Shown here piece by piece: positions 564 through 16,379 of a DNA stretch of 64,000 bases. Source of the stretch: Actinomycetota bacterium (GTDB taxonomy: Bacteria > Actinomycetota > Actinomycetes > S36-B12); NCBI GenBank assembly GCA_046046455.1, contig JBJOJS010000095.1, positions 1,995-65,994 of the forward strand. The letters are read 5' to 3'. How positions within the stretch are numbered: the first letter of the stretch is position 1; the number at the start of each line of letters is the position of its first letter. Below the pieces are notes generated by a model. It had not been told where the DNA came from. It saw only the letters and a program-made list of their open reading frames with translations, and did not search any database. Position numbers and translations under genes: made by a program.

Positions 564-2207
564 CTATAGGGCCTTGATGTCATCGATCTTCATCAGATAC
601 AGCGCGCCACCCTCGACGACGAGGTTGTCGAACGCCGTGATCTGCTCCGGCGACATACCTACCACCAGGTCGGGTCGAGCCACGGAGGGCTTGGCGTGCA
701 CCTGGGCATCGAAGAGGAAGTAGCTCGCCTTGTCACCCGGCTCCGCGACCAGACTCGTGATGTCGACGATGCCGCTGGACTCCTCGTCGTTCGTCAGCTT
801 GCCGGGGGCACCGTTGCCGAAGAGCGACGGGTTGAACTGCGCCACGGTCGAGATCTTCTTGGTCGTGGTGTTGTAGGACACGATGCGGGCGATGTGATCG
901 TTGCCGCCCGGATCTTCCTGGATCATGATCGTGCCGTCCGGCGAGATCGACATGTTGTCGGGCTTATTGAGGTAGATCGACTCCTTGCCGTCGAGCACCA
1001 TCTCGATCGTTGCACCGGCCAGCGGCGTCTTGGCGTCGACGAAGGTGAGCTTCCAGAGTGCACCACCGTCGCGCTTGAAGTTGGTCGCCGGATCAGGGGT
1101 GGTGACGGCACCGGCGGACTCGGTCGTCACGAACCAGTAGACATTGGGGTTGCGCGGATCCCAGGCTCCGTCCTCGACGCGGGCGAGCACCGTGCCCACA
1201 CGGGCGGCAGCAGCGTTCTGGGCGTTGCCCGACTGGTCCCAGCCGACCGTGGCGAAGGTCGCCTTTGCGACCTTGCCCTTGCCGAACTGCGTGCGGAATG
1301 CGACGTCATTGGCAAGCGCGTTGCCCGTGTCATCCAGGATCTGCATCACGTAGTTCTTGCCGTTGGTGAAGCCGGCCTTGTCAGCCCAGGTGCCTGCGTC
1401 GGTCTTCTTGCCGACGTACATCCACAGCTGGCTGTCGGTAGCCGAACCATCCTCATTGCCCATGACCACCGTGGCGCGACCCGAGTTGGGGGCAGTCACG
1501 AGGTTCTCCCAGGCGGCAAGGCCCAGGCGCGGGAGTTGGAAGGCTTCCCCCGCCATGTTGACGGCGAAGGCGCGCGACTCGTCGCCACCCTCCTCGCCCG
1601 TGAGGTACACCGCACCGTCGTAGCCGTAGGTCTTGGTGACGATCTTCTTGCCGACCTTCTCCTTGACGGTGGTCAGCAGGGCCCCCGCGGGCACGAGGTC
1701 CGCTGAGCAGAATCGGTTGATGCCCACGGTGTGGTTGGGAGTCCCGTAGGAGTCGAGGACCTTGGCTCCCGCCGGAGAGGTGGCCGACGCGCCGTAGGAG
1801 TCCGTGGCGTAGTTCCACCAGTTGATCTTCTTGATCAGCTCTTCGCCCTTGGTCACCGTGCCGTCTGCGACGTCCACGGTGAGCTTGGACACGAAGGAGC
1901 CGGAGCCACCCCAGGCTCGCTTGTGATCCTTGGCGGGACCGGCCAGCGACAACTCGTGGTTGACGAGGACGGTGAGGGAGCCGTCCTTGTTCTTGTAGAC
2001 GCCCAGGCCGTCCGGCACACCGGGCAGGGTGAAGTTGCCAATGCGGTCACCGGCCGCGGCGAGCATGACGAGTGACACACCGGTGCCCTTCGCCTGAACG
2101 TACTCGGGCGCGGTGCTTCCCGCATACGTGGGCGTCGCCACGGCAGCGAGGCCGACCCCCGAGGCCGCAATGACAGCGGCCACCTTCAACGAGCGAAAAT
2201 GGGTCAC
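564..2207 (-). CDS. Secreted PhoX/DUF839-like beta-propeller phosphatase (putative)
   Basis: 547 aa. Sec-type signal MTHFRSLKVAAVIAASGVGLAAVATPTYAGS. The VLVNHELS and KPDNMSISPDGTIMIQEDPGGN motifs resemble the PhoX/DUF839 family as I recall it. GTG start preceded by an AGGGGA SD. Lies next to the pst genes. Confidence 0.5.
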   Translation of the reverse strand: MTHFRSLKVAAVIAASGVGLAAVATPTYAGSTAPEYVQAKGTGVSLVMLAAAGDRIGNFTLPGVPDGLGVYKNKDGSLTVLVNHELSLAGPAKDHKRAWGGSGSFVSKLTVDVADGTVTKGEELIKKINWWNYATDSYGASATSPAGAKVLDSYGTPNHTVGINRFCSADLVPAGALLTTVKEKVGKKIVTKTYGYDGAVYLTGEEGGDESRAFAVNMAGEAFQLPRLGLAAWENLVTAPNSGRATVVMGNEDGSATDSQLWMYVGKKTDAGTWADKAGFTNGKNYVMQILDDTGNALANDVAFRTQFGKGKVAKATFATVGWDQSGNAQNAAAARVGTVLARVEDGAWDPRNPNVYWFVTTESAGAVTTPDPATNFKRDGGALWKLTFVDAKTPLAGATIEMVLDGKESIYLNKPDNMSISPDGTIMIQEDPGGNDHIARIVSYNTTTKKISTVAQFNPSLFGNGAPGKLTNDEESSGIVDITSLVAEPGDKASYFLFDAQVHAKPSVARPDLVVGMSPEQITAFDNLVVEGGALYLMKIDDIKAL

Positions 2208-2329: not shown

Positions 2330-3790
2330 CTACGGCGGAGTAGGACGTGCTCTCAAGCCGGACAGTTTGCGCCCCGAAATCTCGTCCAGGGACTTGCCTG
2401 CCGGCTCGATCTTGAAGGCCTGCGTGATGATGAGTGCCAGGATGCAGATCCCCGCCATGCCGAAGACGAGGGCAGGGATGCCGATGGCCTCCTGGAGGAT
2501 CGGGAAGAAGAAGACGCCCAGGGCCGCCCCCAACTTGGCGGCGCCAGCCGCGAAACCGTGCCCCGCAGCCCGGATGTCCGAGGGGAAGATCTCCGCTGGC
2601 AGCGCGTATGTCGTCGCATTGGGACCGGCGTTCATGAAGAAGTTGAAAATCGCGAAGCCGAGGAAGACGAGCCCGAGATAGCCCGTGCCCTCGGGGCCCT
2701 GGAGTACCGACGACACCCCGAGGATGACGAGGCCGACAGCCATGAAGACGAAGCCGGTCGTCTGCAGGCGAATCCGACCCCATCGCTCCACGAGGAAGAT
2801 GGCGGCGGCGAAGCCGAGCACGAGGAAGATGTCGAGTACCGCGGTCCACTCGGTCGAAGCGATATCGTCCGCGATGAAGTTGGTGTTGGACTTGTCCTGA
2901 TTGCCGCCGAAGGCCAGCGCCGCGATCAGGGTGGGCGTGAAGATACCGACCCCATAGGTCGCGATGTCCATGAGGAACCACGGCACGGATGTGAAGATCG
3001 TGCGCCTGATCATGTCGGGCTTGAAGAGTTGAGGCTGCCAGAGCGCCTGGATCCCCTCCGATGACTGCTCTGCCTTCTCCCGATCCTTGTCCGTGATGAC
3101 CACCGGGACGTTCGTGAGCTCCTCGACGACCTTGATCGCCTCATCCTCGTGGCCATTCTGGGCGAGCCAACGCGGACTCTCCGGGACTCTTCGCCTGAGC
3201 AGGATGATGACCAGGGCGGGCACGATCCCGAAGCCGAGCATCCATCGCCATGACGTCTCGTAGGGCAGCAGGAGGAGCACACCCACACCCACCAGGGCGC
3301 CCAGGAGCATGCCCACCGCCTGCAGCGAGAACGCCGACACCAGCCAACGGCCGCGATTCTTCTGCGGAAGCACCTCGGCGAGATAGGACGCCGCGATCGG
3401 GTAGTCCAGCCCGATGGCAATGCCGAGCAGGAAGCGGAAGGCGATCAGCGACCAGGTGTCCCAGGCCACCATGCACCCGATGGAGAACACGACGAACATC
3501 CACAGGTCGTACTTGAAGATGCGGCGTCTGCCGAGCTTGTCTCCCAGCGGCCCGAGCACGGCCGCACCGAACATCGCTCCCACGATGGCTGCCGCGGAGA
3601 TGAGTCCCTTCTGCCACGCGTTGGCGCCGAGATCCTCGGAAATGAGGGGATTGGCCACGCCGATGATGAAGAAGTCGAACCCGTCGAGCATGATGCCAAG
3701 GCCGGCAAGGAGCCAGAACTTCTTATGCAGGCGCGTCATGCGCGCCTGGTCCAGCGCCTTGCCGAGGGGAATGGCCTGGGCATCACTCAC
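2330..3790 (-). CDS. MFS transporter, sugar-porter / PHS (Pho84)-like
   Basis: 486 aa, 12 TM-like segments. Has a GDKLGRRRIF loop, PESPRWL, and GIAIGLDYPIAASYLAE (the D-Y-P signature seen in PHS/YaaU-type members). Confidence 0.75.
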   Translation of the reverse strand: MSDAQAIPLGKALDQARMTRLHKKFWLLAGLGIMLDGFDFFIIGVANPLISEDLGANAWQKGLISAAAIVGAMFGAAVLGPLGDKLGRRRIFKYDLWMFVVFSIGCMVAWDTWSLIAFRFLLGIAIGLDYPIAASYLAEVLPQKNRGRWLVSAFSLQAVGMLLGALVGVGVLLLLPYETSWRWMLGFGIVPALVIILLRRRVPESPRWLAQNGHEDEAIKVVEELTNVPVVITDKDREKAEQSSEGIQALWQPQLFKPDMIRRTIFTSVPWFLMDIATYGVGIFTPTLIAALAFGGNQDKSNTNFIADDIASTEWTAVLDIFLVLGFAAAIFLVERWGRIRLQTTGFVFMAVGLVILGVSSVLQGPEGTGYLGLVFLGFAIFNFFMNAGPNATTYALPAEIFPSDIRAAGHGFAAGAAKLGAALGVFFFPILQEAIGIPALVFGMAGICILALIITQAFKIEPAGKSLDEISGRKLSGLRARPTPP

Positions 3791-3877: not shown

Positions 3878-4696
3878 TCAGCCGAAGCGGCCGTTCACGT
3901 AATCGAAGGTGCGCGGGTCCTGCGGCTCACCAAACATCAGGTCGGTGGGGCCGTGCTCCACGATGTGGCCCGGCTGGCCATGCTCGGCAAGGAAGAAGGC
4001 ACACGTCTGCGACACGCGCTGGGCTTGCTGCATGTTGTGGGTCACGATGACGATGGTGACCTCCTCGCGCAACTCCCCGATCGTCTCCTCGATGCGCCTC
4101 GTCGACGTCGGGTCCAGAGCCGAACAGGGCTCGTCCATGAGGAGGACCTTGGGCTTGATTGCCAGCGACCGAGCGATGCACAGGCGCTGCTGCTGGCCGC
4201 CGGAGAGGCCGCCACCGGGTGCGCGCAGGCGGTCCTTGACCTCCTTCCAGAGGCCTGCCTTGGTGAGGCAGTGCTCGACCAGCTCATCCTTCTCGTCGCC
4301 GCTGGCGTGCACACCGTTGAGCTTGAGCCCCGCGATGACGTTGTCGTAGATGCTCATCGCCGGGAAGGGGTTGGGCTTCTGGAAGACCATGCCGATCTGC
4401 CTGCGGGCATCGGTGATGCGGACGTTGGGCGCGTAGATGTCCTCGCCGTCGAGCAGCACCTCCCCCGCGATACGGGCGCTCACCACGAGCTCGTGCATGC
4501 GGTTGAGGGACCGAAGGAAGGTGGACTTGCCGCAGCCGGAGGGCCCGATGAGAGCGGTGACCTCCCCCGCGGGCATGAGCAGTGAGACTCGATCCAGAAC
4601 CAGGTGCGTGCCGAACCAGCATGAGATGTCGATGGCGTGCAGCGAGAAGAGCTGGGGAGCCGCGGCCGTCGAGGTGTCGTCGATCGTCATCGTCAT
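3878..4696 (-). CDS. pstB: Phosphate ABC transporter ATP-binding protein PstB
   Basis: 272 aa. Walker [18 protein letters not shown] signature, and the PstB-typical [10 protein letters not shown] and [10 protein letters not shown] motifs. GGAAG SD 8 nt upstream. Confidence 0.95.
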
Positions 4697-4709: not shown

Positions 4710-5633
4710 TCAGAGGAGGTTGGGCAGGAGTCGGAGGGCGCTCATCGATGCCATGATCCCCGCGAAGAACACGATGGGGGCGGCCACGAGCCAGGCCTGC
4801 CACTTGCCCCAGCGGATGACCAGCCAGACGGTCGCCACCGCGACGACGAGGAGGAGTTGCAGCCACAGCAGCAGCGGCACCAGGCCGGCAGGGTCGCCGG
4901 CCATCGCCTGCTCCGCGGGATCGAGGGCGGCTGCGGTGATGACGCGAGGAGGCGCGGGCTGCGCGGGGGTCACCAGGTCGGCGTCGACGCGCAGCAGATC
5001 CGTGGGCATGAAGCGCGGCCCCATGGCCGTCACGAGCGTCAACCGACCCTGACCTGCCGCCACGGGCGCCGGCAGCGGATCACCGGGGCGACGAACCCCG
5101 ACGACGCGGTACTCCGCAGGGCCCTGACCCGTGGTGGCGACGATGGTCATGCCGGGCTGAAGGATCTCCAACTGCCCGAAGGGTCCACCGAAGGCTGCCT
5201 GCCGCCCGTAGATCACCGAGGTGCCGGGCTGGCCGGGGAGCACGGTGTCGCGCTTGTGCCCGGGACCGCTTTGGGTGACGGTCGAGGTCGTGCCCTCGAC
5301 CACGACCTCCTTCATCCCGAGGTCGGGGATCTCCAGGACGGCCACGGGGGCACCGGGTCGCAGGAGTGCGCCGTTGACATCGGTCTGACCCACCGGGGCA
5401 ATCGCGTTGGCAAGTTCGCTGCGGAAGTCGGAGTAGAGGACCTCCTGATCACGCGCATGCACGAGCTGGCTCACGATGAGCAGGTTGGCCAGGAAGCCCA
5501 GGCAGAGGATCGCGAACGCAAGCAGGACGCTGATCACAAGGAACTTCGGAGACTGCACTACAGACAGGGTCGAGTCGGCGCTGTCTGCCGATCCGGCTTC
5601 CACGACCTCAGGCTCGCGATCCATCACGCTCAT
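4710..5633 (-). CDS. Sortase-fold membrane protein lacking the catalytic His and Cys (pseudo-sortase)
   Basis: 307 aa with an N-terminal TM and 2 C-terminal TMs. The core [65 protein letters not shown] follows the class E sortase layout. It reads YGRQ where AGHR is expected and TLVTA where TLxTC is expected. Its ATGA start overlaps the upstream gene's stop. Confidence 0.6.
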
Positions 5634-6517
5634 GATCCCACGCTCACCGATTCGTCGGACGAAATTTCATGGCGCCGTCCGCGCCAGTAGGCGTAGGCAG
5701 CACCGAGGATGAGAAGGGCACCCGCCACGAGCGCGATCATCCGCCATGACGAGTCCTCGGAGGTCGGTGACGCGCTCGAGGAGGACGTCCCCGTCAGTGC
5801 CACGGCGGTCGGGTCGCTGCCCGTCACTTCCTGAGCGGGCAGAGCGGCATCCTCGGCACCCGGATCTGCGGCGCCCGCACTGCCAGCTGCCTGACCACCC
5901 TCTCCTGAGCCGCTGCCCGACTGATCCCTCTCCTGACCCTGCGACCCAGCACCCGAGGACTCCTGGGCCGCATCGGATGTCGAGTCGGATCCCGCATCGC
6001 CAGGCACAGTCGCGGAAGACTCCTGGGCAGGGTCGGGAGTGGACACGAACTCCGCCACCGGCGTCGCGGCTGCCCCCAGAGCGACGTAGCTATCGCCCTT
6101 GATGCGCAGCGCACCCGTGAAGGTCTGCAGGTCCTGCAGGTCGAGGCGATTGCGACAGGCGAAGACGAGGTCGTAGGTGCCCTTAGGAGTGCTCACGCCA
6201 TGGGAGACGAAGAACTCCCGCAGGGTACGGGCCAGTGGCACCGCATGATGCCCCGGGTAGATCGCCGGCTCGAGTACAGCGAGCTCCGTGTTGCCGACGG
6301 CGTTGCCCGCCGTCACAGGATCGATGCCCGCGCCGCGGACAGCCACGACGAAGGTGACTCCCTGCGAGCACACACCCGAGGTCACGACGTCCATGGGGGT
6401 GTCCAAAGTGCCTTCGGCAGGGACGATCGCCAACGTCCCCTCACCCGCTGCGGACGCCGGCGAAGCCCAGGAGAGCACCGCGAAGCACGCGACCGCGGCC
6501 GCAACTGCCTTCCTCAT
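5630..6517 (-). CDS. Secreted protein: Cys-pair N-domain, acidic Ser/Gly stalk, C-terminal TM anchor
   Basis: 295 aa. Signal peptide ...SPASAAGEG, a roughly 100-aa low-complexity D/E/S/G/Q stalk, then WRMIALVAGALLILGAAYAYWRGRRHE. GAGGAG SD. The N-domain is paralogous to 6580..7377. Confidence 0.6.
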   Translation of the reverse strand: MRKAVAAAVACFAVLSWASPASAAGEGTLAIVPAEGTLDTPMDVVTSGVCSQGVTFVVAVRGAGIDPVTAGNAVGNTELAVLEPAIYPGHHAVPLARTLREFFVSHGVSTPKGTYDLVFACRNRLDLQDLQTFTGALRIKGDSYVALGAAATPVAEFVSTPDPAQESSATVPGDAGSDSTSDAAQESSGAGSQGQERDQSGSGSGEGGQAAGSAGAADPGAEDAALPAQEVTGSDPTAVALTGTSSSSASPTSEDSSWRMIALVAGALLILGAAYAYWRGRRHEISSDESVSVGS

Positions 6518-6579: not shown

Positions 6580-7377
6580 CTACTTCTTGGCGATGGTGAC
6601 ACTCGCCGAAGCGGTGCCATCGGTATAGCCGTCCGCCTTGGCCGTGACCGTGACGGTGACCTTCTTACCCTTGTCAGCAGCCGCCACCTTGTAGGTGTTC
6701 TTGGTGCTGACGACCTTGGTGCCGACCTTCCACGAGTAGGCGTAGGAGGTGGGCGTGGTCGACCAGGTGCCATTGCTCACCTTGAGGGTCTGGCCTGCCT
6801 TGGCCGTGCCGGTGATCTTCGGCTTCGTGACGTTGGTGATCGGCGACGGCGCACCCTCCTTGAACGTGAGGGTGGCTCCGTCGATGATCGTCACCGTGGT
6901 CGAGAAGGACGAAATCGCCTTCGGGTCGAGCTTGGCGCGGCACTCCAGCGTGAGGGTGTAGGCCCCACTCGGAAGCTTGGCGTCCTTGTTCTCCGCCTTG
7001 ACCATGCTGAAGAGCTTGCTCAGCGGTGTGCGGATCGGCGAGGTCGACTCACCGGAGGACCCCGCGGCCGAGAGCGCCGTGTTGCCCACCATGTAGTTGA
7101 CGTCCTCGTACGTCGGCCCCGTGGAGCCTGGGCCGGGGACGGCGTACTGCACGCCCGCACCCGTCAGCTTGACCACGAAGTGCGTGGCCGAGGCATCGGA
7201 GCAGCCGGCCGAGGTGACGACGGATACCGGGTCAGCCCCGGTGCCCGACGACGGCTCGAGCTTCAGCGTGCCCGTGGTGCCCGCACTCGCCGCAGGGGCC
7301 ACGAGGGCCATGCCTGCGGCAGCGAGTGCGGTGGCAGCCAGGGCCGCTGCGCCCGCGCGCATGATTCGAATGCTCAT
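6580..7377 (-). CDS. Secreted protein: Cys-pair N-domain plus Ig-like C-terminal repeat (no anchor)
   Basis: 265 aa after trimming to the ATG at 7377 (AAGGAGAA SD). Signal ...VAPAASAGTTG. The N-domain aligns with 5630..6517. The C-terminal KITGTAKAGQTLKVSNGTWSTTPTSYAYSWKVG..VTVTAKADGY is a typical actinobacterial Ig-like surface repeat. Confidence 0.6.
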   Translation of the reverse strand: MSIRIMRAGAAALAATALAAAGMALVAPAASAGTTGTLKLEPSSGTGADPVSVVTSAGCSDASATHFVVKLTGAGVQYAVPGPGSTGPTYEDVNYMVGNTALSAAGSSGESTSPIRTPLSKLFSMVKAENKDAKLPSGAYTLTLECRAKLDPKAISSFSTTVTIIDGATLTFKEGAPSPITNVTKPKITGTAKAGQTLKVSNGTWSTTPTSYAYSWKVGTKVVSTKNTYKVAAADKGKKVTVTVTAKADGYTDGTASASVTIAKK

Positions 7378-7406
7378 GTCATTTTCTCCTTGGTCTGCGC
7401 GTCGGA

Positions 7407-8405
7407 TTAGCTGCGGCTCGAGGTGTCGCCGCAGGTGGTCGCCAGCACGCCGAAGCCCTGCTGAGCGATGACTGCGGACTGCTTGCACACCAGCGAGTCC
7501 TTGCCGACGAAGACCTGGTACTCCTTCGACGCGGTGTCGGTGACCTTCGTGGTCGGGACGACGTTGAAGACGTCGCGGCTGTAGACGCTCGAGGTGTTGA
7601 GCAGGGTGGGAGCCTGGTCGCCCAGGACACCCAGCACGCTCATGCCGCGACGATCGGGGGCAGCGCCTGTGGCCTGCGCCTGCCAGACGGCGATCGAGTA
7701 GGGCTGGATCTCGTTGGCCTTGAGCTGGCGACCGTCGTGCTCCTGCGTGTACTCAGCCCCGGTGCCGCCCGCCGACTTGGGCTTGAGGCAGGGGTAGGTG
7801 CCCGCGGTGATCTGGTCCTCGGTGATGCCGAAGCGACCGAGCCAGTAGGAGCGCGTGCCCGAGCCCGCCTGCGGGAGCACCGGCACGATGCTGGTGTTCT
7901 CGCACTTGTAGATCGAGGTGAGCTCGGCGACGCTGAGCGACTTCGGCACCGAACCGTCGGAGCGCACCGCGAAGGTCACAGCATCCTTGGCGAAGGGGAT
8001 CCAGGTGTAGCCGGTCGGAGACGAGGAGCTCTTCGCCGAGGACGACCGGGCGAACTGGATGCAGCCGTCGCCCGCCTTGACGCTGGCGTCGAGCACCTTG
8101 ACGCCGTTGCTGGAGCCGTTGGCCGCCGCACGGGTGAAGGTGCACTTGGCGTCGGCCTTGGTCTGGAAGGTCTCGGTCGTGCTCGAGCTCGCGTTGTAGG
8201 AGCCGATGACCTTGACGTCGTTGATCTTCACGACCTGCGACAGGGCCTGGACGAGGTCCATGGTCGTGTCCGAGCCGACACCGACGAGGTCGCGGTACTG
8301 GGGCGGACCATCCGGGTCTGCGGACGCGGTGGGGATGACGGCCAGCATGAGGCTGAGCGCGCCGGCGCCCGCCGCGGCCGCGATGAGTGCCTTCTTTGCG
8401 TTCAC
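7407..8405 (-). CDS. PstS-family (PBP-like 2) periplasmic-binding-domain protein, secreted, no lipobox
   Basis: 332 aa, GTG start with AAGGAAAGGGA SD. Sec signal ...IPTASADP. Motifs GVGSDTT, ANGSSNGV, FARSSS and PQAGSGTR correspond to PstS-type anion-binding loops. Confidence 0.65.
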   Translation of the reverse strand: MNAKKALIAAAAGAGALSLMLAVIPTASADPDGPPQYRDLVGVGSDTTMDLVQALSQVVKINDVKVIGSYNASSSTTETFQTKADAKCTFTRAAANGSSNGVKVLDASVKAGDGCIQFARSSSAKSSSSPTGYTWIPFAKDAVTFAVRSDGSVPKSLSVAELTSIYKCENTSIVPVLPQAGSGTRSYWLGRFGITEDQITAGTYPCLKPKSAGGTGAEYTQEHDGRQLKANEIQPYSIAVWQAQATGAAPDRRGMSVLGVLGDQAPTLLNTSSVYSRDVFNVVPTTKVTDTASKEYQVFVGKDSLVCKQSAVIAQQGFGVLATTCGDTSSRS

Positions 8406-8419
8406 TGTGTTCCCTTTCC

Positions 8420-10972
8420 TTACGGTGTCCGACGCGGTTCCGCGACGGGGTCTGTGGATCCTGCGAGGGCAGGAGTGGTGGAGCGCATGAGCCGCTGGCC
8501 CAGCACGGCAGCGACGAGCAGGGCAGCACCTCCGGCGATGAGCAACAGCACAGCGAGGTAGCGGACGAGGCCGACGGGCGTCGTCGGTGTCGTAGGCAGT
8601 GCCGCGGCCACGAGCGAGTCATCGACCGACACCGCAGCGGTCTCCTCGACGACGACCTCCTCCTCGGACGTCGTCTCCTCGACCACCGTCTCGGTGTCGC
8701 CCGAGGCGTCGGTGGTCTCGGTCACGGTCGTGGTGTCCGTGTACGTCGTATCGGTGTACGTCGTATCGGTATACGTCGTATCGGTTGTCACGTCCGTTGT
8801 CGTATCGGTGGTGATGTCCGTCGTCGTATCGGTCGTGGTGTCCGTGGTCGTGCCCGATCCGCCATCGTCGGGAATCGGCTTGCCGGCCTGCTTGACGATC
8901 GCCGCGGCCACCTTCGTGGCGGCAGCGCGTGCGTCCTCGGGGAGGGGGACGTAGCCCGGGGGCAGCTGTCCGGTGGAATCGCCCACCACCTGCCCGGGGC
9001 CCACGGCGTAGTCGATGAATCGGGCGTACTCCGCCGCAGCGGCCTTCGTGAGGCTCGGCGGCGACGTCATGGCATAGACGAACGAAGCGAGGGGGTAGGC
9101 CCCTGCCACCTTCTTGCCGGGGTCGGGCTGCTCGATCTCCTTGACCTCGGTCGGCACAGCGGCAGACCCTGCCTTGCTGATGGACTGGTCCGTAGGGGCG
9201 ATGTACTCGCCATCCGCATTGCGCAGCAGAGCGGCGTTCAGCGCGAAGCGGCCGGTGAGTGCGGAGTCGGTCAACGTGATGATCGCTCGCTTGCCGGGCT
9301 CCTGAGCGGGGGTGCGCTTGTTGCCCGGCGGGATGGCGGTCGGGTCGTAGATGCCCGTTGACAGGGTGTCGCCTCGGCTGGCCGCCCGTGCCCCCGAGTA
9401 GAGGTCGGCGGAGTAGGGCACGAGATCGAAGGTGCACATGGGCACGACGCGGTCCGCGTAGGTGACGCACACGTTATCGGCGCGAGGGAAGTCCGAGCGC
9501 GGGAACGTCGTCTTCTTGTAGACCGGGTTGATCTTGGTGCCCCAGGGATCTTCCTTGCCCTCGAGGAAGGCCCGGGCATCCTTGTCGGCCCAGATCCACT
9601 CCCACACCAGTCGCGCAGTGTCCGAATCACCCGAGGGCGTCATGATGTGCCCGAGAGCGGGGATGCGGAGTTCCTTGAACTGCGGATTCAACTCCAGGAA
9701 CTCCGGGTCGGTGGCGAGGTCCCAGGGGTTGTCCTCGACGCGCTTGGGGTCAGGGGCGGCGTCGTAACGATAGGTCTGCGTGAGCAGCTTGGCCACGAGA
9801 CGCTGGTTGAGCTTGATGCCCGCAAGACGCTGGCCGTCACGTGCACGCACGGACTCAGGAGCCAGGCTTGAGGACTGGCTCTCGAGATTGAAGGAGATCG
9901 TGACACCCGACAGGGCGATCGGGGCGTAGACCACCGGATGCTGCGGGCTCACCGCCTCGGGGGCTAGGCCGCGCTCGACGAAGGTGAGATCCGGCGCCGG
10001 GCTCTGGGACTTCTGTCGAGCGGCTTCATCGCTCAGGGCCACGAAACTGAAGTTGCCGTCGCCGTCGGCGCAGAGAGTGGGCTGCCACCGGCTGACCGCC
10101 TCGGCAATCCGATCGGTCCCGAGGAGGGGAATCTCGTCGCGCCCGATCGGGCAGGCAAGGCCGATGGGCTGGAACTCCATCGGGAAGACGATGCGATGGG
10201 CCCAGTTCGATGCGGACAGCGGTGTCGTGTCGAGGGGATTGCCCGTGTTGGTGCCCCGCACCGATCCGTCGACCTCGGTCTTGCCCCGGGGCACGACCAC
10301 CAGCCAGCACAGCGGCGTCTCGCCGTCGCGGGTCTGCCCGCAGCCCAGGCCCGGTGACTCGACACCCGTCTGGACCTCGAAGTACTCCTCGCCCGTGCCA
10401 TCCGGGCGGATGCGAGCGTGATTGACCTCGTTGGAGGTGTAGCGGTCGAAGAATTCGCTCTTCGGGCCGGTCGACGTCTTGCCGGTCCATGACTCGAAGG
10501 GGATGTAGGAGATCCCGTCGACATTCCAGTCGGGATTGTCCTTCTCCTTGGGATCGACGACACCGCTCGTGGTGAGCTGCCGCGAGTTGGTGTTCTGACC
10601 GCCGTTCCATGCGCGCTGGCCGCCGTATTGGCACTTCTCGCGCGGGGGACCATCCTCGGCGGTGCCTCCCCAGCACTGCATGATCTGGAGATAGTTGATG
10701 CCGAGGTTGCCGAACTCCGGCTTCGTGGGCTGCCCACCCGTCCACGAGATCCGGACCACCTGATTGACGAGGTCCTGGGTCTGGCTCACGGTGACCTTGA
10801 GGTCCGCGAAATCGCCCTTGCCGGACTTGGTGACGGCGCTGTCGGTGTTGCGCACATGCACGGTACCGTCACGACCGACGTCGGATGCCCCCGCGATCGG
10901 CGCCATGGCGATGAAGGCGCCGGACGCGATCATGGCCAGGCCCGCGGCCGACGCAAGCGACTTGCGGATCAT
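8420..10972 (-). CDS. Large surface protein: Cys-rich N-domain, divergent PstS-like domain, Thr/Asp repeat stalk, C-terminal TM anchor
   Basis: 850 aa with signal ...APIAGASDV. About 270 aa form a Cys-rich domain of unknown family. The central region has PBP-like features (YPLASFVYAMT, FIDYAVGPGQ, PPGYVPLP). Then come TTTDTTTDTTTDITTD...TTYTDTTYTDTTY and the anchor YLAVLLLIAGGAALLVAAVLGQRLMR. ATGA overlap with the upstream gene. Confidence 0.65.
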   Translation of the reverse strand: MIRKSLASAAGLAMIASGAFIAMAPIAGASDVGRDGTVHVRNTDSAVTKSGKGDFADLKVTVSQTQDLVNQVVRISWTGGQPTKPEFGNLGINYLQIMQCWGGTAEDGPPREKCQYGGQRAWNGGQNTNSRQLTTSGVVDPKEKDNPDWNVDGISYIPFESWTGKTSTGPKSEFFDRYTSNEVNHARIRPDGTGEEYFEVQTGVESPGLGCGQTRDGETPLCWLVVVPRGKTEVDGSVRGTNTGNPLDTTPLSASNWAHRIVFPMEFQPIGLACPIGRDEIPLLGTDRIAEAVSRWQPTLCADGDGNFSFVALSDEAARQKSQSPAPDLTFVERGLAPEAVSPQHPVVYAPIALSGVTISFNLESQSSSLAPESVRARDGQRLAGIKLNQRLVAKLLTQTYRYDAAPDPKRVEDNPWDLATDPEFLELNPQFKELRIPALGHIMTPSGDSDTARLVWEWIWADKDARAFLEGKEDPWGTKINPVYKKTTFPRSDFPRADNVCVTYADRVVPMCTFDLVPYSADLYSGARAASRGDTLSTGIYDPTAIPPGNKRTPAQEPGKRAIITLTDSALTGRFALNAALLRNADGEYIAPTDQSISKAGSAAVPTEVKEIEQPDPGKKVAGAYPLASFVYAMTSPPSLTKAAAAEYARFIDYAVGPGQVVGDSTGQLPPGYVPLPEDARAAATKVAAAIVKQAGKPIPDDGGSGTTTDTTTDTTTDITTDTTTDVTTDTTYTDTTYTDTTYTDTTTVTETTDASGDTETVVEETTSEEEVVVEETAAVSVDDSLVAAALPTTPTTPVGLVRYLAVLLLIAGGAALLVAAVLGQRLMRSTTPALAGSTDPVAEPRRTP
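8735..8852 (-). repeat. In-frame tandem repeats (15-nt x3 plus degenerate 12-nt units) encoding the Thr/Asp stalk
   Basis: gtacgtcgtatcggt is repeated 3 times from about 8741, followed by gtcgtatcggtg-like units. These encode YTDTT and TTDT repeats. Confidence 0.7.
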
Positions 10973-12669
10973 GCGTCACCGCCGGTGCGCTTGGCTGCCA
11001 TGTAGCGCGCCACGAGTGGCGGGGCGAAGAGCAGGGCCAGCACGACGACGAACGTCGCGACCAGCAGACCCGTGTAGGGACCCCAGCCTGAGCTTGCCTC
11101 GGTCGACACCGGGATCCCGGCGACGTAGGCGCCGCCCGTCACGCCTGTGGCCGCCGCGGCCGCGGCCGGATCGACGATGACCTCGCCCGTCGTCGGGTCG
11201 ACGGCTGTCGGATCGGCCGCGATGACCTGACCGGTCTCGGGATCCACGACAACGGCCGCGCCTCCCGCATCGACGGTGACGTCGGTCACAGCCCCGCCGG
11301 CGGTGCCTCCCCCCGTCGTGCCTCCCCCTGACGTCGTGCCGCCGGTCGTGCCCCCGGTCGTGCCGCCACCCGAACCACCACCCGAACCACTACCCGAACC
11401 TCCACCGGAACCACCGCCGGCTGCGCCACCCTCAGCAGCCGTGCCGCACTGGGTCGGACCCTTGGCGTCACACGCCGGAGGCTGGGGCGCGGTCTTGGCG
11501 AGGGTGTTGGTGCCATCCGCGGAGAAGGTGGGGTTCTTGCAGTTCGCGATGTTGATGTTCTCCGGGATAGCCCCGGGAATGCGCTTGATCTGATCGAAGC
11601 CCGCCTTGACCAGATTGATCGGCAGCGGCGAGTACCCCAGGGCATCGGCCTGCTGCTGACCCTGGCAGAGGAAGTAGTTGGCGAAGTCCGCGAGGGTGTT
11701 GCCCTTCTCATTGCTGAAGCCGTTGTCCAGGCTCGTAGGGATCACCATGTAGCTGTACGACGAGAGCGGGTAGGCCCGCTTGTCGCTGCTGGCGTAGACA
11801 CCGCTGAGGTTGGACGTCAGGTCCGAATTGATCTTGGCACCCAGAAGTCCCACGGCGACAGCCTCCGCCGTCGGCAGGACGTAGTAGCCTGACTTGTTCA
11901 GCACCTTCGCGGCGGGGAAACCCGCAGCCTTGGCGTAGGAGTACTCGACGTACGTGATGGCCCCGACGCTCTGATCCTGCTTGACATAGCCGGAGACACC
12001 GAGCGAGCCACTCTGCGCGACGAAGCCAGGGCCGCTCGGGAAGTTCGAGGTGAAGCCGCACGGGGTGCCGCGACCGACCTTCTGGCAGTAGGCATTCCAG
12101 ATGTCGGGGTACATCGCGGCAAGCCACGCCGTGAACTGGGCCGTCGTACCGGAGCCGTCCGAACGCACGACCGGGACGACCTTGATGGGAGGCAGGGTCA
12201 GGCCGGGGTTGTCGGCCTTGATCGCCGCGTCATCCCACTTCGTGATGACGCCCGTGAAGATCTTGGCGATCGTGTCACCCGAGAGCCGAAGCTGCGTGAC
12301 GCGGTTGGGCCCGATCTTGAGGTTGTACATGAACGCCGTGCCACCGGCGACGATCGGCATGTAGGCGAAGGGACGCGTCGGCAACGGATCGACGACGCTG
12401 CCGTCCTTCAGGCCGTAGGGGATCTCAGAGACCGCGAAGTCGACGGTCCCGTTGCGGAACTGGTTGCGGCCATCCGAGGAGCCCGATGCCTGGTAGTCGA
12501 TACGCATGCCGTACTGGTTGACGTTGCGTCGCCACTGGTCCATGGCGTTCGCGCTCCAGGTCGAGCCCGAGCCGGACACGGGCACGTAGCTGGCGGCTGA
12601 CGCCGGCAGGATGGGGCTTACGAGCACGGCGCCGAGGGCAAGGACGACGACGCTGAGGACGCGCTTCAT
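10969..12669 (-). CDS. pstS: Phosphate-binding protein PstS domain with Gly/Thr stalk and C-terminal TM anchor
   Basis: 566 aa with Sec signal ...ILPASAASY and no lipobox Cys. PstS motifs SGSGSTWS, ASGSSDGRNQF, DFAVSE and RSDGSGTT. A Gly/Ser/Thr-rich low-complexity stalk is followed by LLVATFVVVLALLFAPPLVARYMAAKR. ATGA overlaps at both ends. Confidence 0.8.
   Translation of the reverse strand: MKRVLSVVVLALGAVLVSPILPASAASYVPVSGSGSTWSANAMDQWRRNVNQYGMRIDYQASGSSDGRNQFRNGTVDFAVSEIPYGLKDGSVVDPLPTRPFAYMPIVAGGTAFMYNLKIGPNRVTQLRLSGDTIAKIFTGVITKWDDAAIKADNPGLTLPPIKVVPVVRSDGSGTTAQFTAWLAAMYPDIWNAYCQKVGRGTPCGFTSNFPSGPGFVAQSGSLGVSGYVKQDQSVGAITYVEYSYAKAAGFPAAKVLNKSGYYVLPTAEAVAVGLLGAKINSDLTSNLSGVYASSDKRAYPLSSYSYMVIPTSLDNGFSNEKGNTLADFANYFLCQGQQQADALGYSPLPINLVKAGFDQIKRIPGAIPENINIANCKNPTFSADGTNTLAKTAPQPPACDAKGPTQCGTAAEGGAAGGGSGGGSGSGSGGGSGGGTTGGTTGGTTSGGGTTGGGTAGGAVTDVTVDAGGAAVVVDPETGQVIAADPTAVDPTTGEVIVDPAAAAAATGVTGGAYVAGIPVSTEASSGWGPYTGLLVATFVVVLALLFAPPLVARYMAAKRTGGDA
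11295..11435 (-). repeat. Low-complexity triplet repeats encoding the Gly/Ser/Thr stalk
   Basis: Runs of ggtcgtgcc / acccgaacc units. Coordinates are approximate. Confidence 0.5.
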
Positions 12670-13943
12670 CGGGAGTCTCCGAAGTCGAGGGATCGGGGGC
12701 TAGACGAAGGTCCCGCGGCAGCCTCCTGCGATGCCACCCGAGAGGCCTCGCGCTTGGTGAACCTTTGGGAATCCTCGCGTGAACGCTTCGCCCGACGCTT
12801 CTGCTGGGACTTCGACAGATTGCCGGGGCCACGGCCGCCGATGATGCGGGCGATGATGAAGAGGATGAGGACCAGGAACATCAGCACGGCCGCCGTACCG
12901 AATCCGCGGGCGATCATCGTGGGCTCGGGCGACTTGACGAACTCGAAGGTCGCCAGGGGCAGGGAGACCATCGGGCCCGTCGTCGGGTTGAGGTTGAGGG
13001 CCGCGGTGAAGCCTGCGGTCAGTAGGACGGGCGATGTCTCACCGACCCCGCGTGCGGTGCCGAGGATGATAGCGGTCATCAGACCCGAGCGAGCGGTGGG
13101 CAGCGTGACGTGCCACACGGTCCGCCACTGCCCTGCCCCGAGGGCGTAGGCCGCTTCCTTGAGGTTGCCCGGCACGAGTCGGAGGACGACATCGGAGGCA
13201 CGGATGATGATGGGAAGCATCATCACGCTGATCGCCATAGCCGCGGCGAGCCCGGACTTGTCGAATCCAAGGATGAGGATGAGTGACGCGTAGATGAACA
13301 GACCCGCAACGATGGAGGGCAGTGCGGTCATCGCCTCGGAGATGGTGCGCACGAATCGGGCGAAGGGCCCCGGGATCTCGTTCATGTAGACCGCGCAGGC
13401 CACCCCGAGGGGGATCACGATCGCGAGCGCGATGGTGATCATGATGAGGGTGCCGAGGATCGCGTGGAGGATGCCACCGGCCGTTAGCGGATCGAGCGGG
13501 CCGGCATTCTGCATGTCCTGCGTGAAGAAGTTGAGGTTCGTGAGCGCTTCCCAACCGCGGATCACCGTGAAGCTGACGACGAAGATGAGCGCCATCAGCA
13601 GTGTGAAGGCCAGGCTGTGGATGAGCACGGCCGCGAGGCGGTCCTTGACGGCCGAGAAGTCCTCGTCCAGGGACACGAGTACGGCGTAGAGCGCTACGAA
13701 GCCCAAGTAGGCGACCGCGAGGAAGCCGAGCCACCCGCTGAAGGGCAGCAGGGTGAAGAGCAGCGCGGCGAAGCCGACGCCGGCGACGGCGGCGCCGGAG
13801 AGCGACAGCACGTCCGACCGGCGGAAGCCGCCGATGCGGCGCGGCTTGAGATCCGGCGGGGTCGGAGTGCGCTGCGGCAGCGTGGTCTTGCGCCCAGTCG
13901 TGCCCGAGGCGAGCTTGTCGAGGTCGTCGATGGAGGCGGTCAT
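12666..13943 (-). CDS. pstA: Phosphate ABC transporter permease PstA
   Basis: 425 aa. PstA-type core with ALGAGQWRTVWHVTLP and GTARGVGETSPVLLTAGF, plus a long N-terminal extension. The start lies 1 nt after the pstC stop. Confidence 0.9.
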   Translation of the reverse strand: MTASIDDLDKLASGTTGRKTTLPQRTPTPPDLKPRRIGGFRRSDVLSLSGAAVAGVGFAALLFTLLPFSGWLGFLAVAYLGFVALYAVLVSLDEDFSAVKDRLAAVLIHSLAFTLLMALIFVVSFTVIRGWEALTNLNFFTQDMQNAGPLDPLTAGGILHAILGTLIMITIALAIVIPLGVACAVYMNEIPGPFARFVRTISEAMTALPSIVAGLFIYASLILILGFDKSGLAAAMAISVMMLPIIIRASDVVLRLVPGNLKEAAYALGAGQWRTVWHVTLPTARSGLMTAIILGTARGVGETSPVLLTAGFTAALNLNPTTGPMVSLPLATFEFVKSPEPTMIARGFGTAAVLMFLVLILFIIARIIGGRGPGNLSKSQQKRRAKRSREDSQRFTKREASRVASQEAAAGPSSSPRSLDFGDSR

Positions 13944-13944
13944 G

Positions 13945-14997
13945 TCAGTCGGCCGTCGATGCGCCGGATCGCGACCTCGCCACGATGGAGGAAGCGATGA
14001 AGTTGACGATGAGCGTGATGATGAAGAGCGCGAGGCCCGCAGCCATGAGGGCCGAAGTGCCGAACGGCGTGGCTTCGCCGTAGCGGAGCGCGATGAGCGC
14101 CGAGACCGAGTTGGTGCCGTTCTGCAGGATGTGCGGCTGGAAGACGAAGACCGGCGAGATGATCATGAAGACCGCGATGGTTTCACCGAGTGCTCGGCCC
14201 AGGCCGAGCATCGTGCCGCCGATCATGCCGCCCTTGCCGAAGGGCAGGACGACGGAGCGGATCATGCCCCACTTGGTCGCGCCCAGGGCGTAGGCGCCTT
14301 CGCGCTCGCCGACAGGCGCCTGCGAGAAGACCTCGCGCATGACCGACGTCGTGATGGGGGCGACCATGAGCGCGACGACGATGCCGGCGATGAACGTCGA
14401 GGACGTGAAGACCGTCGCGGTGGACAGCGGATCATTGGGATCGCTGCCGTCGACGGCGAAGATGGGGATCCAGCCGAAGTAGGTGGAGATCCATCGAGCC
14501 AAGCCGATGATCTGGCCCTGGAGGAAGAAGAACCCCCACAGACCGAAGACCACGCTGGGGACCGCGGCCATGAGATCGACCAAGCTGATGAGCGTCTGCT
14601 TGATCTTGCGAGGGCTGTACTCCGAGATGTAGAGCGCGACACCGGTCGAGAGCGGGACGGCGAAGAAGATCGCCGTGAGCGCGATGAGGACGGTGCCGCT
14701 GAGCACGGCCGCGATGCCGAAGTTGCCACCGTCAGGCTCCCAGGCCTGCGTGGTGATGAAGGAGAAGCCCGCCTGGCTGAGCGCTTGCAACGCGCGAATC
14801 GTCAGGAAAATCCCGACGAGGGCCATGATGAGCAGCACGAGCGCCCCGCTGGCACTCACACCACCTCGGAAGAAGCGATCGCTCTGACTACGTGTGGTGG
14901 TGAGTTGACGGGGCTCGACCGAGGCCGCGTCATCGTCGTGGCGCGGTGGGAGGAAGGTCGTGGCCACGGACGGGACTCTTTCCACCCTTGCTGACAC
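13945..14997 (-). CDS. pstC: Phosphate ABC transporter permease PstC
   Basis: 350 aa, GTG start. Has EGAYALGATKWGMIRSVVLP and GLGRALGETIAV motifs. First gene of the operon; no pstS lies upstream. Confidence 0.9.
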   Translation of the reverse strand: MSARVERVPSVATTFLPPRHDDDAASVEPRQLTTTRSQSDRFFRGGVSASGALVLLIMALVGIFLTIRALQALSQAGFSFITTQAWEPDGGNFGIAAVLSGTVLIALTAIFFAVPLSTGVALYISEYSPRKIKQTLISLVDLMAAVPSVVFGLWGFFFLQGQIIGLARWISTYFGWIPIFAVDGSDPNDPLSTATVFTSSTFIAGIVVALMVAPITTSVMREVFSQAPVGEREGAYALGATKWGMIRSVVLPFGKGGMIGGTMLGLGRALGETIAVFMIISPVFVFQPHILQNGTNSVSALIALRYGEATPFGTSALMAAGLALFIITLIVNFIASSIVARSRSGASTAD

Positions 14998-15032
14998 CGT
15001 CTCGACAGCGGCCCGAACACCACCTTTCGACT

Positions 15033-15102
15033 AGGTGAACGACTGGATTCACTCGAGTCGTACACGGGCACTGGGTCCAGATGACGCACAGGTGAACGAA
15101 GC
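15033..15102. promoter_or_regulatory. Candidate Pho-regulator sites (GTGAACGA x2) in the divergent pstC / HD-gene region
   Basis: GTGAACGAC at about 15035 and GTGAACGAAG at about 15092. These read GTTCAC on the pstC strand. The same 10-mer GTGAACGAAG occurs at about 2219 upstream of the PhoX-like gene. Confidence 0.3.
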
Positions 15103-15727
15103 ATGTCGTGTGAGTGGCATCACGACCACGCGAACATGGCGCGCAACCGACCTAGGCCCTGAGCACACTGTCCCCGTGGCCGCGGCTCCCCCTCCGATCG
15201 TCGCACGTGCGCGCGCACTCGCGGCCGCCGTGCTGAGTGATGACCCTGAGGTCTACGAGCACAGTGCACGAACCGCCCATCGGGCTTCCGATATCGCCCG
15301 GCGAGTCCCCGGCAGTCGCGCAGCCGACGTTGTGGCGGCAGCGTGGCTGCACGACATCGGGTACGCCGGTCGACTGTCGCGGACGGGGTTCCACCCGCTC
15401 GACGGAGCCCTCTTCCTCATTGCCGAGGACTGGCCGGAGCGGGTCGTACGGTTGGTGGCCCATCACTCGCTCGCCTCCCTTCAGGCCCCCTTCTACGGGG
15501 TGGGCCACCACCTGGGCGTCATCGAGGTCGTCACGGGCATCGACGCTGATCTCCTCGTCAGTGCCGACCTCCGTGCAGGCCTGGGCGATCCGATCCCTTC
15601 GGTGCAGGAGCGTCTCGATGCCATGCGTCGAGAAGAGGAGCGGATGGGACTGGTACCCGAGGATGTCCGTGAGACGCGCTATGCCGGACTGCATGCCGCG
15701 CACCAGCGAGTCGAGGCACTCCTCTAG
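15035..15727 (+). CDS. HD-domain metal-dependent phosphohydrolase (start uncertain, possibly GTG 15176)
   Basis: AAWLHDIGY (H-D dyad), FHPLDGALFL, LVAHHS. The ORF's first ~47 codons overlap the likely pstC promoter, so the later GTG at 15176 is plausible. Confidence 0.65.
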   Translation: MNDWIHSSRTRALGPDDAQVNEACRVSGITTTRTWRATDLGPEHTVPVAAAPPPIVARARALAAAVLSDDPEVYEHSARTAHRASDIARRVPGSRAADVVAAAWLHDIGYAGRLSRTGFHPLDGALFLIAEDWPERVVRLVAHHSLASLQAPFYGVGHHLGVIEVVTGIDADLLVSADLRAGLGDPIPSVQERLDAMRREEERMGLVPEDVRETRYAGLHAAHQRVEALL

Positions 15728-15800: not shown

Positions 15801-16379
15801 GTGGACAGTCAGCTCCTCCGCTACTCACGCGATTGCGCCAGGACTCTGCTGGCGTCCGAGGCGCCAGCGGCGTGGATGAGGAGTTCGCACGCGGCAGACC
15901 AGGCGGCACGGGCAGTGACTGCGCTCGACCGGCCCCGCGGCGACATGATCATCTCCGCCGCATGGCTCCACGCAATCGGCGAGAGTCCTTCCATCCGCAC
16001 GACCGGATTCGCTCCCGTGGACGGCGCGGTGTACCTCCTCGCCGCAGGCTGGCCGACCCCGGTGGTCAACCTCATCGCGCACCAGGGGCAGGCGCGTCTG
16101 ATCGCGCCTGCCTACGACGCGCACGAGAGGCTTGCCCTCTTCGAGAGAATCCAGGGCTGGCCCAGTGACATCCTCGACTACTCGATCACGACCTCGCTGA
16201 CAGGCGCCCCCGACGCAGACCCGGAAGCATGCCTCCGTCTTGCGGCCAAGGCACTACCTCCCTCGCTGAGCATCACGGCACGGGATCGAGGCGAGCGTGA
16301 ACGACGTCTGCGGCGTGCCGTCGATCGCGTCAGCGCGGCGTTGATCGCGGCTCGATCCCCAGCTCGCCCAGGAGCCTGA
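15801..16379 (+). CDS. HD-domain paralog with a degenerate metal-binding motif
   Basis: 192 aa. Collinear with the upstream gene, but it reads AAWLHAIGE (D->A) and IAHQGQ in place of VAHHS. Confidence 0.55.
   Translation: MDSQLLRYSRDCARTLLASEAPAAWMRSSHAADQAARAVTALDRPRGDMIISAAWLHAIGESPSIRTTGFAPVDGAVYLLAAGWPTPVVNLIAHQGQARLIAPAYDAHERLALFERIQGWPSDILDYSITTSLTGAPDADPEACLRLAAKALPPSLSITARDRGERERRLRRAVDRVSAALIAARSPARPGA

Follow-up and report, generated by a model that had tools for sequence, protein, structure and literature searches.

Sortases are treated as obligate cysteine transpeptidases and are targets for both drug development and protein engineering. In the Isd haem locus of Staphylococcus and Bacillus, an ABC importer with its binding protein is encoded together with surface proteins that carry sorting signals and with a dedicated sortase, SrtB, which is a working cysteine transpeptidase with NPQTN as its substrate. 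Membrane relatives of peptide-processing enzymes that have lost catalysis are known from another fold: the iRhoms and Derlins are inactive rhomboid adaptors, and client binding has been demonstrated for the iRhoms. Here we analyse a sortase homologue that has lost the catalytic histidine and cysteine and is encoded inside a phosphate-transport (pst) operon. The gene lies in a stretch of 64,000 nucleotides (nt), hereafter the window, from an Actinomycetota bacterium of the lineage S36-B12 (GenBank assembly GCA_046046455.1, contig JBJOJS010000095.1, positions 1,995 to 65,994 of the forward strand). It occupies window positions 4710..5633 on the minus strand, as do all features of its operon given below, and it is an intact open reading frame (ORF) with an ATG start. 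The protein of 307 amino acids (aa), which we call the pseudo-sortase, consists of an N-terminal transmembrane (TM) helix, an extracytoplasmic sortase beta-barrel, a C-terminal TM hairpin and an LPNLL end.

The locus resembles the Isd locus in being a nutrient-uptake locus with a sortase-family gene, which suggests an envelope-spanning relay. It departs from the Isd system, however, in having a dead sortase homologue, a cargo that is presumably phosphate, and binding proteins that carry TM anchors and long stalks. The likeness to iRhoms and Derlins lies in a conserved membrane relative of a peptide-processing enzyme, with catalysis lost and a link to client membrane proteins, although the fold and the kingdom are unrelated and the pseudo-sortase is so far only predicted to bind its clients. 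The nearest known enzymes are the class E sortases, for which we took SrtE1 of S. coelicolor (5cuw), SrtE of S. avermitilis (5go5 and 5go6), SrtF of C. diphtheriae (5uus) and SrtE of T. fusca (9iok). The pseudo-sortase has in common with them the beta-barrel, the N-terminal TM anchor, the extracytoplasmic position of the domain and the best sequence and profile matches, and a gene that adjoins those of LAxTG proteins in many lineages. It differs in having Arg in place of the catalytic His, Ala in place of the Cys, probably an aliphatic residue in place of the Arg, and Lys or Arg in place of the Tyr that follows GPGH. The C-terminal TM hairpin, the LPNLx end and the location in a pst operon also set it apart.

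The original prediction for this gene, which was made from the sequence alone, described a sortase homologue with both catalytic residues replaced, and HMMER alignments to solved class E sortases bear this out. R144 (codon 5202..5204) aligns to the catalytic His of 5uus, 5go5 and 4d70, with YGRQ standing for AGHR, and A203 (codon 5025..5027) is placed opposite the catalytic Cys of 5go6 in a profile alignment (LTLVTA versus LTLVTC). The only Cys of the pseudo-sortase sits in the first TM helix (TM1), therefore no alternative alignment can supply a catalytic Cys to the active site. The same prediction held that the downstream Arg is retained, which is probably wrong: the catalytic Arg of 5go5 (in HSHRLIVWAHL) falls on L213 (codon 4995..4997) and not on R215 two residues further on, in a stretch aligned with a low posterior of about 0.5. 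These positions were followed through an alignment of 147 of the most diverse full-length relatives. The His column holds R in 144 of them and K in the other 3, and the Cys column holds A (108), S (17), G (7), T (7), V (6) or L (1), but never C, so the TLxTC motif is not retained by the orthologues. Column 213 is occupied by V, A, T, L or I, and column 215 by R in 55 relatives and by Y in 53. Judging from these alignments, the catalytic Arg of the pseudo-sortase has probably been lost as well. We looked across the loci for a link between R or Y at 215 and the type of motif in the neighbouring protein and found none. Cysteine is absent from the sortase domain of 137 of the 147 relatives and from the whole protein in 74. 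Additionally, in all 120 of the closest readable database relatives the His site reads G-R and the Cys site is occupied by A, G, P, L or V.

That the protein is nevertheless a sortase homologue follows from both profiles and the modelled structure. The Pfam Sortase model (PF04203) matches it with 48.6 bits, well above the gathering cut-off of 26.6, and the top NCBIfam model is that of class E sortases (NF033747) with 56.9 bits, which falls far short of its cut-off of 160 bits. The sortase domain also has profile matches to 5uus, 5go5, 5go6 and 4d70. An AlphaFold2 (AF2) model built with 33 homologues (pLDDT 80.8, pTM 0.74) comprises a helix at residues 29-75, which includes the TM and juxtamembrane parts, an eight-stranded barrel at 96-220 and two further TM helices at 248-275 and 277-302; the latter two are the extra C-terminal helices which had been noticed in the sequence. 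A Foldseek search of this model against the PDB returned sortases only (E about 1e-10, target TM-score up to 0.77), among them A. oris SrtC2, C. perfringens SrtD, C. diphtheriae SrtF and T. fusca SrtE. TM1 itself corresponds to residues ~31-57 (5463..5543) and is followed by a conserved juxtamembrane helix with the pattern HARDQ..YSDFR..LANA, in which R61, Q63 and R71 are invariant among the aligned relatives. The sortase-fold domain with its eight strands spans residues ~92-222 (4968..5360). The class E motifs EGT, GPGH, LPGxxG, G.PF, the DPxP of the beta6/beta7 loop and RxLTLxT are all kept, as would be expected if the peptide-binding groove had been kept. By its profile matches and its predicted structure the pseudo-sortase is thus a member of the sortase fold superfamily (MEROPS C60), and it is closest to the class E sortases, from which it descended. 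We would not classify it among the sortase enzymes, because the defining catalytic features are missing and the NCBIfam class E threshold is not reached.

The substitutions are a property of a large family and not of one genome. When 1.84 billion cluster representatives were searched exhaustively with HMMER, 309 clusters (50% identity) matched with E<1e-30, and among the GTDB species, each represented by one genome, at least 542 carry a relative. The best 80 loci of these species come from Ca. Nanopelagicales and other freshwater metagenome-assembled genomes (MAGs), from Plantactinospora, Micromonospora, Phytohabitans, Asanoa, Dactylosporangium, Actinoplanes, Virgisporangium and Hamadaea, from about 40 Streptomyces species, from Streptacidiphilus, Jiangella, Kineosporia and Allonocardiopsis, and from Microbacterium mangrovi, one Pseudonocardiaceae MAG and one Acidimicrobiales MAG. 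In the family alignment T or S at position 202 (146/147), D217 (140/147) and A218 are near-invariant, and the sortase domain contains four invariant arginines, R128, R144, R181 and R197. Among eight orthologues of the window's own clade, pairwise dN/dS is 0.04-0.20 at dS of 0.36-1.8, and the ORF has the same length as its orthologues. Therefore, the pseudo-sortase is under purifying selection and the replacements of His and Cys are conserved family-wide rather than sporadic.

The family has not only lost residues but has also gained conserved parts. The C-terminal TM hairpin (residues 248-302, 4728..4892) is found throughout the family and has invariant columns. Its turn is basic and Trp-rich (W270, R274, W275, G276 and W281 are conserved), with a mean of 2.4 K/R and 0.1 D/E in the loop 272-280, and the 25 residues before TM1 are likewise net basic across the family. 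From these charges the positive-inside rule predicts a cytoplasmic location for the N-terminus and the turn of the hairpin, and an outside location for the sortase domain and the C-terminus. The extreme C-terminus LLPNL-L (4713..4727), predicted outside the membrane, contains some of the most conserved residues of the protein, since L303, P304 and N305 are each at least 93% conserved. In the loci 84 orthologues could be read, and every one of them terminates in LPN[LVM]x-COOH. This pentapeptide resembles a sorting motif, and the predicted extracellular LPNLx end might be a built-in pseudo-substrate for the groove of the pseudo-sortase itself.

Nine genes are packed tightly on the minus strand, and that of the pseudo-sortase is the eighth. 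Its ATG shares bases with the stop codon of the gene before it, which encodes a 295-aa protein (ATGA, 5630-5633), and its TGA is separated by a gap of 13 nt from the ATG of pstB (4696), which confirms the placement directly upstream of pstB; the operon genes are translationally coupled. The operon begins with the permease genes pstC (13945..14997; TIGR02138, 249.6 bits against a cut-off of 196.45) and pstA (12666..13943; TIGR00974, 211.5 bits against 193.45). They are followed by the gene for PstS, a protein of 566 aa with a Gly/Thr stalk and a C-terminal anchor (10969..12669; TIGR00975, 231.4 bits against 205), by that for a divergent PstS-like protein of 850 aa, here p850, which matches TIGR00975 partially (8420..10972), and by that for a divergent, secreted PBP/PstS-like protein of 332 aa (7407..8405; Pfam PBP_like_2, 38.6 bits), which is syntenic in most loci. 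Next come the genes for a ~265-aa protein (6580..7377), identified as a paralogue of the 295-aa protein from its ORF and alignment, and for the 295-aa anchored protein (5630..6517), characterised by alignment, AF2 and the conservation of its tail. The ABC ATPase gene pstB (3878..4696) closes the operon; it matches Pfam ABC_tran, and its TIGR00972 score of 337.1 bits is marginally under the cut-off of 343.2.

We judged the synteny on 83 loci by tblastn with nine window proteins. In nearly all loci that are long enough the order is pstC-pstA-PstS-p850-PBP332, then a variable slot with one to three Ig-like proteins, then pseudo-sortase-pstB, and pstB directly follows the pseudo-sortase gene in 81 of the 83. 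The operon resembles a canonical PstSCAB system in that PstS, PstC and PstA pass the equivalog cut-offs, with PstB just under its own, and in having Pho-box-like repeats upstream. However, the order pstC-pstA-pstS-...-pstB with five extra genes inserted is unlike that of pstSCAB, PstS is held by a TM helix and a Gly/Thr stalk instead of a lipid, and besides the pseudo-sortase the operon encodes two more divergent PstS-like proteins. In Streptomyces a canonical pst operon exists separately, and the cluster described here is therefore most likely an accessory one.

The proteins encoded in the variable slot connect the pseudo-sortase to sorting signals. A pattern of [LM][PA]x[TS]G followed by a hydrophobic stretch and basic residues closes 52 of the 74 readable ORFs upstream of the pseudo-sortase gene. 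As an internal control, 69 of 1505 long frames with high GC at third codon positions in the loci match this pattern, and 54 of these 69 are in the slot upstream of the pseudo-sortase. Examples of these signals, all from outside the window's clade, are LPVTG in Micromonospora and Actinoplanes, LPRTG in Dactylosporangium, LPTTG in Virgisporangium and Asanoa, LALTG in Plantactinospora, LAQTG in Jiangella and LASTG or MA[SA]TG in Streptomyces. Within the single genus Asanoa the signal switches between LA and LP, being LALTG in locus L029 and LPTTG in locus L044. The slot proteins of Streptomyces have a conserved tail, RRKGLL[ST]FG, past the basic residues. A subset of Streptomyces loci carries the unusual variant MASTG or MAATG instead of LAxTG (at about 7600-9800 in L036, L040, L051, L053, L056, L058, L063, L067, L068, L071, L074 and L082), followed by a cytoplasmic RRKGLLTFG tail.

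The slot proteins share with the 295-aa and ~265-aa proteins of the window an N-terminal domain of ~120 aa with two invariant Cys and a G.Y motif. The 295-aa protein is made up of a signal peptide, this two-Cys beta-sandwich, a disordered acidic Ser/Gly stalk and a TM anchor. In place of the motif column, the proteins of the window's clade carry a different conserved anchor, WR..L...GA.LL.GAAY..W.GRR, and by alignment the 295-aa protein is orthologous to the LPxTG/LAxTG proteins of other lineages but has lost their motif. Foldseek with its AF2 model (pLDDT 67) gave nothing significant, the best match being to generic Ig/PKD folds at E 0.16. The ~265-aa paralogue lacks a TM anchor and combines the same two-Cys N-terminal domain with an Ig-like domain at the C-terminus. 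In its longest ORF, 6580-7488 with a GTG start at 7488, its gene would share 82 nt with that of the PBP-like protein; the start is likely the ATG at 7377, which opens a signal peptide (MSIRIMRAGAAALAAT...). A second sortase or an LPXTG substrate was looked for in the 64-kb window and none was found.

The other anchored proteins of the operon also end in conserved membrane segments. PstS has no lipobox anchor; instead, a Gly/Thr-rich stalk of about 150 aa leads to a C-terminal TM helix that anchors the protein, and in 60 orthologues from Nanopelagicales to Streptomyces its tail reads xPVxL, about 13 aa, the TM helix and GPPLxAR. In p850 a conserved N-terminal domain of ~280 aa with several invariant Cys and Trp, for which no relatives are detectable, precedes a very divergent PstS-like domain, which is interrupted by an insertion of ~200 aa and leads into a stalk of (TTD)n repeats. 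A profile of 19 p850 orthologues matches PstS structures of the PDB at E 1.8e-9; direct sequence searches of the PDB with p850 and the 332-aa protein gave nothing, and Pfam gave no match on the 19 orthologues. The tails of p850 conserve TP....G..R[WYF], the TM helix, GP and RR. The LPTTP that had been proposed as the closest thing to a sorting motif in p850 is not conserved, and TP..G..R[WYF] is conserved in its place. It does hold that the 295-aa protein, p850 and PstS each have a C-terminal TM helix with a basic end and neither LPXTG nor LAXTG. Conserved anchors that follow non-conserved, low-complexity stalks argue for specific partners in the membrane.

We give about an even chance to the reading that the pseudo-sortase is a non-catalytic, sortase-derived adaptor which binds the stalked proteins of its operon by their C-terminal anchor regions and keeps them at the PstCAB importer. 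In such an arrangement the dead sortase domain would still bind the segment before the TM helix of its partners, which is LPxTG, LAxTG or MAxTG in most lineages and a degenerate sequence in the lineage of the window, and the TM helices of the pseudo-sortase would pack against the conserved TM anchors of the partners. The stalked PstS-like and Ig-like proteins would thereby be gathered or retained at the PstCA-PstB transporter, and the outcome would be an envelope-spanning phosphate-capture assembly that follows the logic of the Isd haem relay but dispenses with transpeptidation. The scaffold or chaperone for degenerate sorting signals that was originally proposed stands in part: the protein is derived from a sortase, its catalytic residues are lost and its operon does encode stalked proteins with C-terminal anchors, whereas its binding to them is a prediction. 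Three points weigh against the adaptor. Recognition of the motif cannot be the sole role, since the clade of the window has no motif and the pseudo-sortase is equally conserved there. In the other lineages the T-G dipeptide is kept, which suggests that a real sortase still cuts these proteins and is not required by a pure scaffold. Furthermore, R144 and D217 are near-invariant and might be there for chemistry rather than for structure.

The complete, cleavable motif of the neighbours, T-G included, is in most lineages what would be expected if the pseudo-sortase modulated a housekeeping class E sortase. It might bind either the LAxTG/LPxTG signal of its neighbour or the sortase itself, and the signal would then be shielded and the protein kept membrane-anchored by the transporter, or it would be handed over to the catalytic sortase. 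The LP/LA flip within Asanoa, which would be expected of a promiscuous class E reader, and the kept groove motifs agree with such modulation. However, strong purifying selection acts on the pseudo-sortase in the Nanopelagicales clade although its neighbour there lacks the motif, no catalytic sortase is encoded in the window and nothing in our data ties the pseudo-sortase to one. We therefore regard the modulation of a sortase as rather unlikely. One would argue that the conservation of R144 (R/K in all 147 relatives), of T/S202 and of D217 is more than the filling of a dead site needs, and that the protein is still an enzyme with another catalytic set, for example Thr/Ser202 or Asp217 with Arg144, acting on the neighbour or on other envelope substrates. 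However, T202 is no more than the Thr inherited with the ancestral TLxTC motif, the site once held by the nucleophile varies and is mostly occupied by Ala or Gly, and a salt bridge between R144 and D217 that fills the old active site would explain the conservation equally well. As we also know of no precedent for a Cys-independent sortase, a catalytic role seems improbable.

The invariant arginines R128, R144, R181 and R197 lend themselves to another idea, that the dead site binds an anionic or wall ligand such as phosphate, polyphosphate, teichoic-acid-like polymers or lipid II, and that the protein serves as a sensor or tether of the Pst system independently of sorting signals. The gene is fixed inside a phosphate-transport operon and is retained where the sorting motif of the neighbour has been lost, both of which fit a ligand of this kind. 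However, catalytic class E sortases have R197 too, and the strong linkage to proteins with sorting signals would be left unexplained, so that we consider such ligand binding quite improbable. The loss of catalytic residues, seen in isolation, could point to a decaying or strain-specific class E sortase pseudogene, which was the alternative allowed for at the outset. This alternative is refuted: the ORF is intact and of orthologue-like length, dN/dS is low, the same substitutions are found in relatives across orders within conserved synteny, and new conserved features, the TM hairpin and the LPNL tail, have been added. The adaptor, for all the points raised against it, is the reading that we prefer.

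Neither a natural family of Cys-less sortases nor a sortase linked to pst genes is described in the literature that we searched, although an earlier account may exist elsewhere. Five sortases are listed for A. missouriensis, none of them with the size or the architecture of the pseudo-sortase (PMC13251363). We tentatively propose, as a possibility that we would not yet call probable, that this is the first natural pseudo-sortase family, ancient and actinomycete-wide, and that it forms a structural subunit of an undescribed envelope-spanning machine for phosphate capture. If so, the machine would consist of stalked, TM-anchored PstS-like proteins and Ig-like proteins with sorting signals docked on a second PstCAB. 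It would be the phosphate counterpart of the Isd haem relay, in which nature kept the peptide recognition of the sortase fold and discarded its chemistry. A large conserved branch without Cys represents a second, non-catalytic use of the sortase fold, and it marks a conserved Pst-type cluster of nine or more genes, of which we likewise found no description in the literature searched. Its carriers include hundreds of species of Streptomyces and Micromonosporaceae as well as abundant freshwater actinobacteria. The source annotations of the relatives are 'sortase', 'sortase A' or 'class E sortase', and such annotations over-predict catalytic sortases. Phosphate capture across the thick actinobacterial envelope is poorly understood, and the cluster offers a genetically testable candidate.

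The surroundings of the operon are also concerned with phosphate acquisition. Directly downstream of pstB lie the genes of an MFS transporter (2330-3790, minus strand), for which the best NCBIfam model is a phosphate:H+ symporter with a score below the cut-off, and of a secreted PhoX-like alkaline phosphatase (564-2207, minus strand; Pfam PhoX, 32 bits). Pho-box-like direct repeats are present on the minus strand upstream of pstC, namely GTTCACCtgtgCGTCATCtgga at ~15076-15097 and a second GTTCACC at 15034-15040, and another repeat, GTTCACtagggGATCAC at 2208-2224 on the same strand, abuts the start of the PhoX-like gene. Over the whole window the Pho-box pattern is not enriched (45 matches versus 42 expected from shuffles), so that the two well-placed sites are only suggestive of control by PhoP. 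Divergently from the pst operon run two tandem paralogous HD-domain-like genes on the plus strand (15035-15727 and 15801-16379), the second of which has no Pfam match but resembles the first. In Micromonosporaceae the cluster extends past pstB with more Big_3_5 and LPXTG-type proteins, as seen in the loci L021, L022, L028 and L033 (at about 13000-15200) and in L001/L002 (at about 11900-14700).

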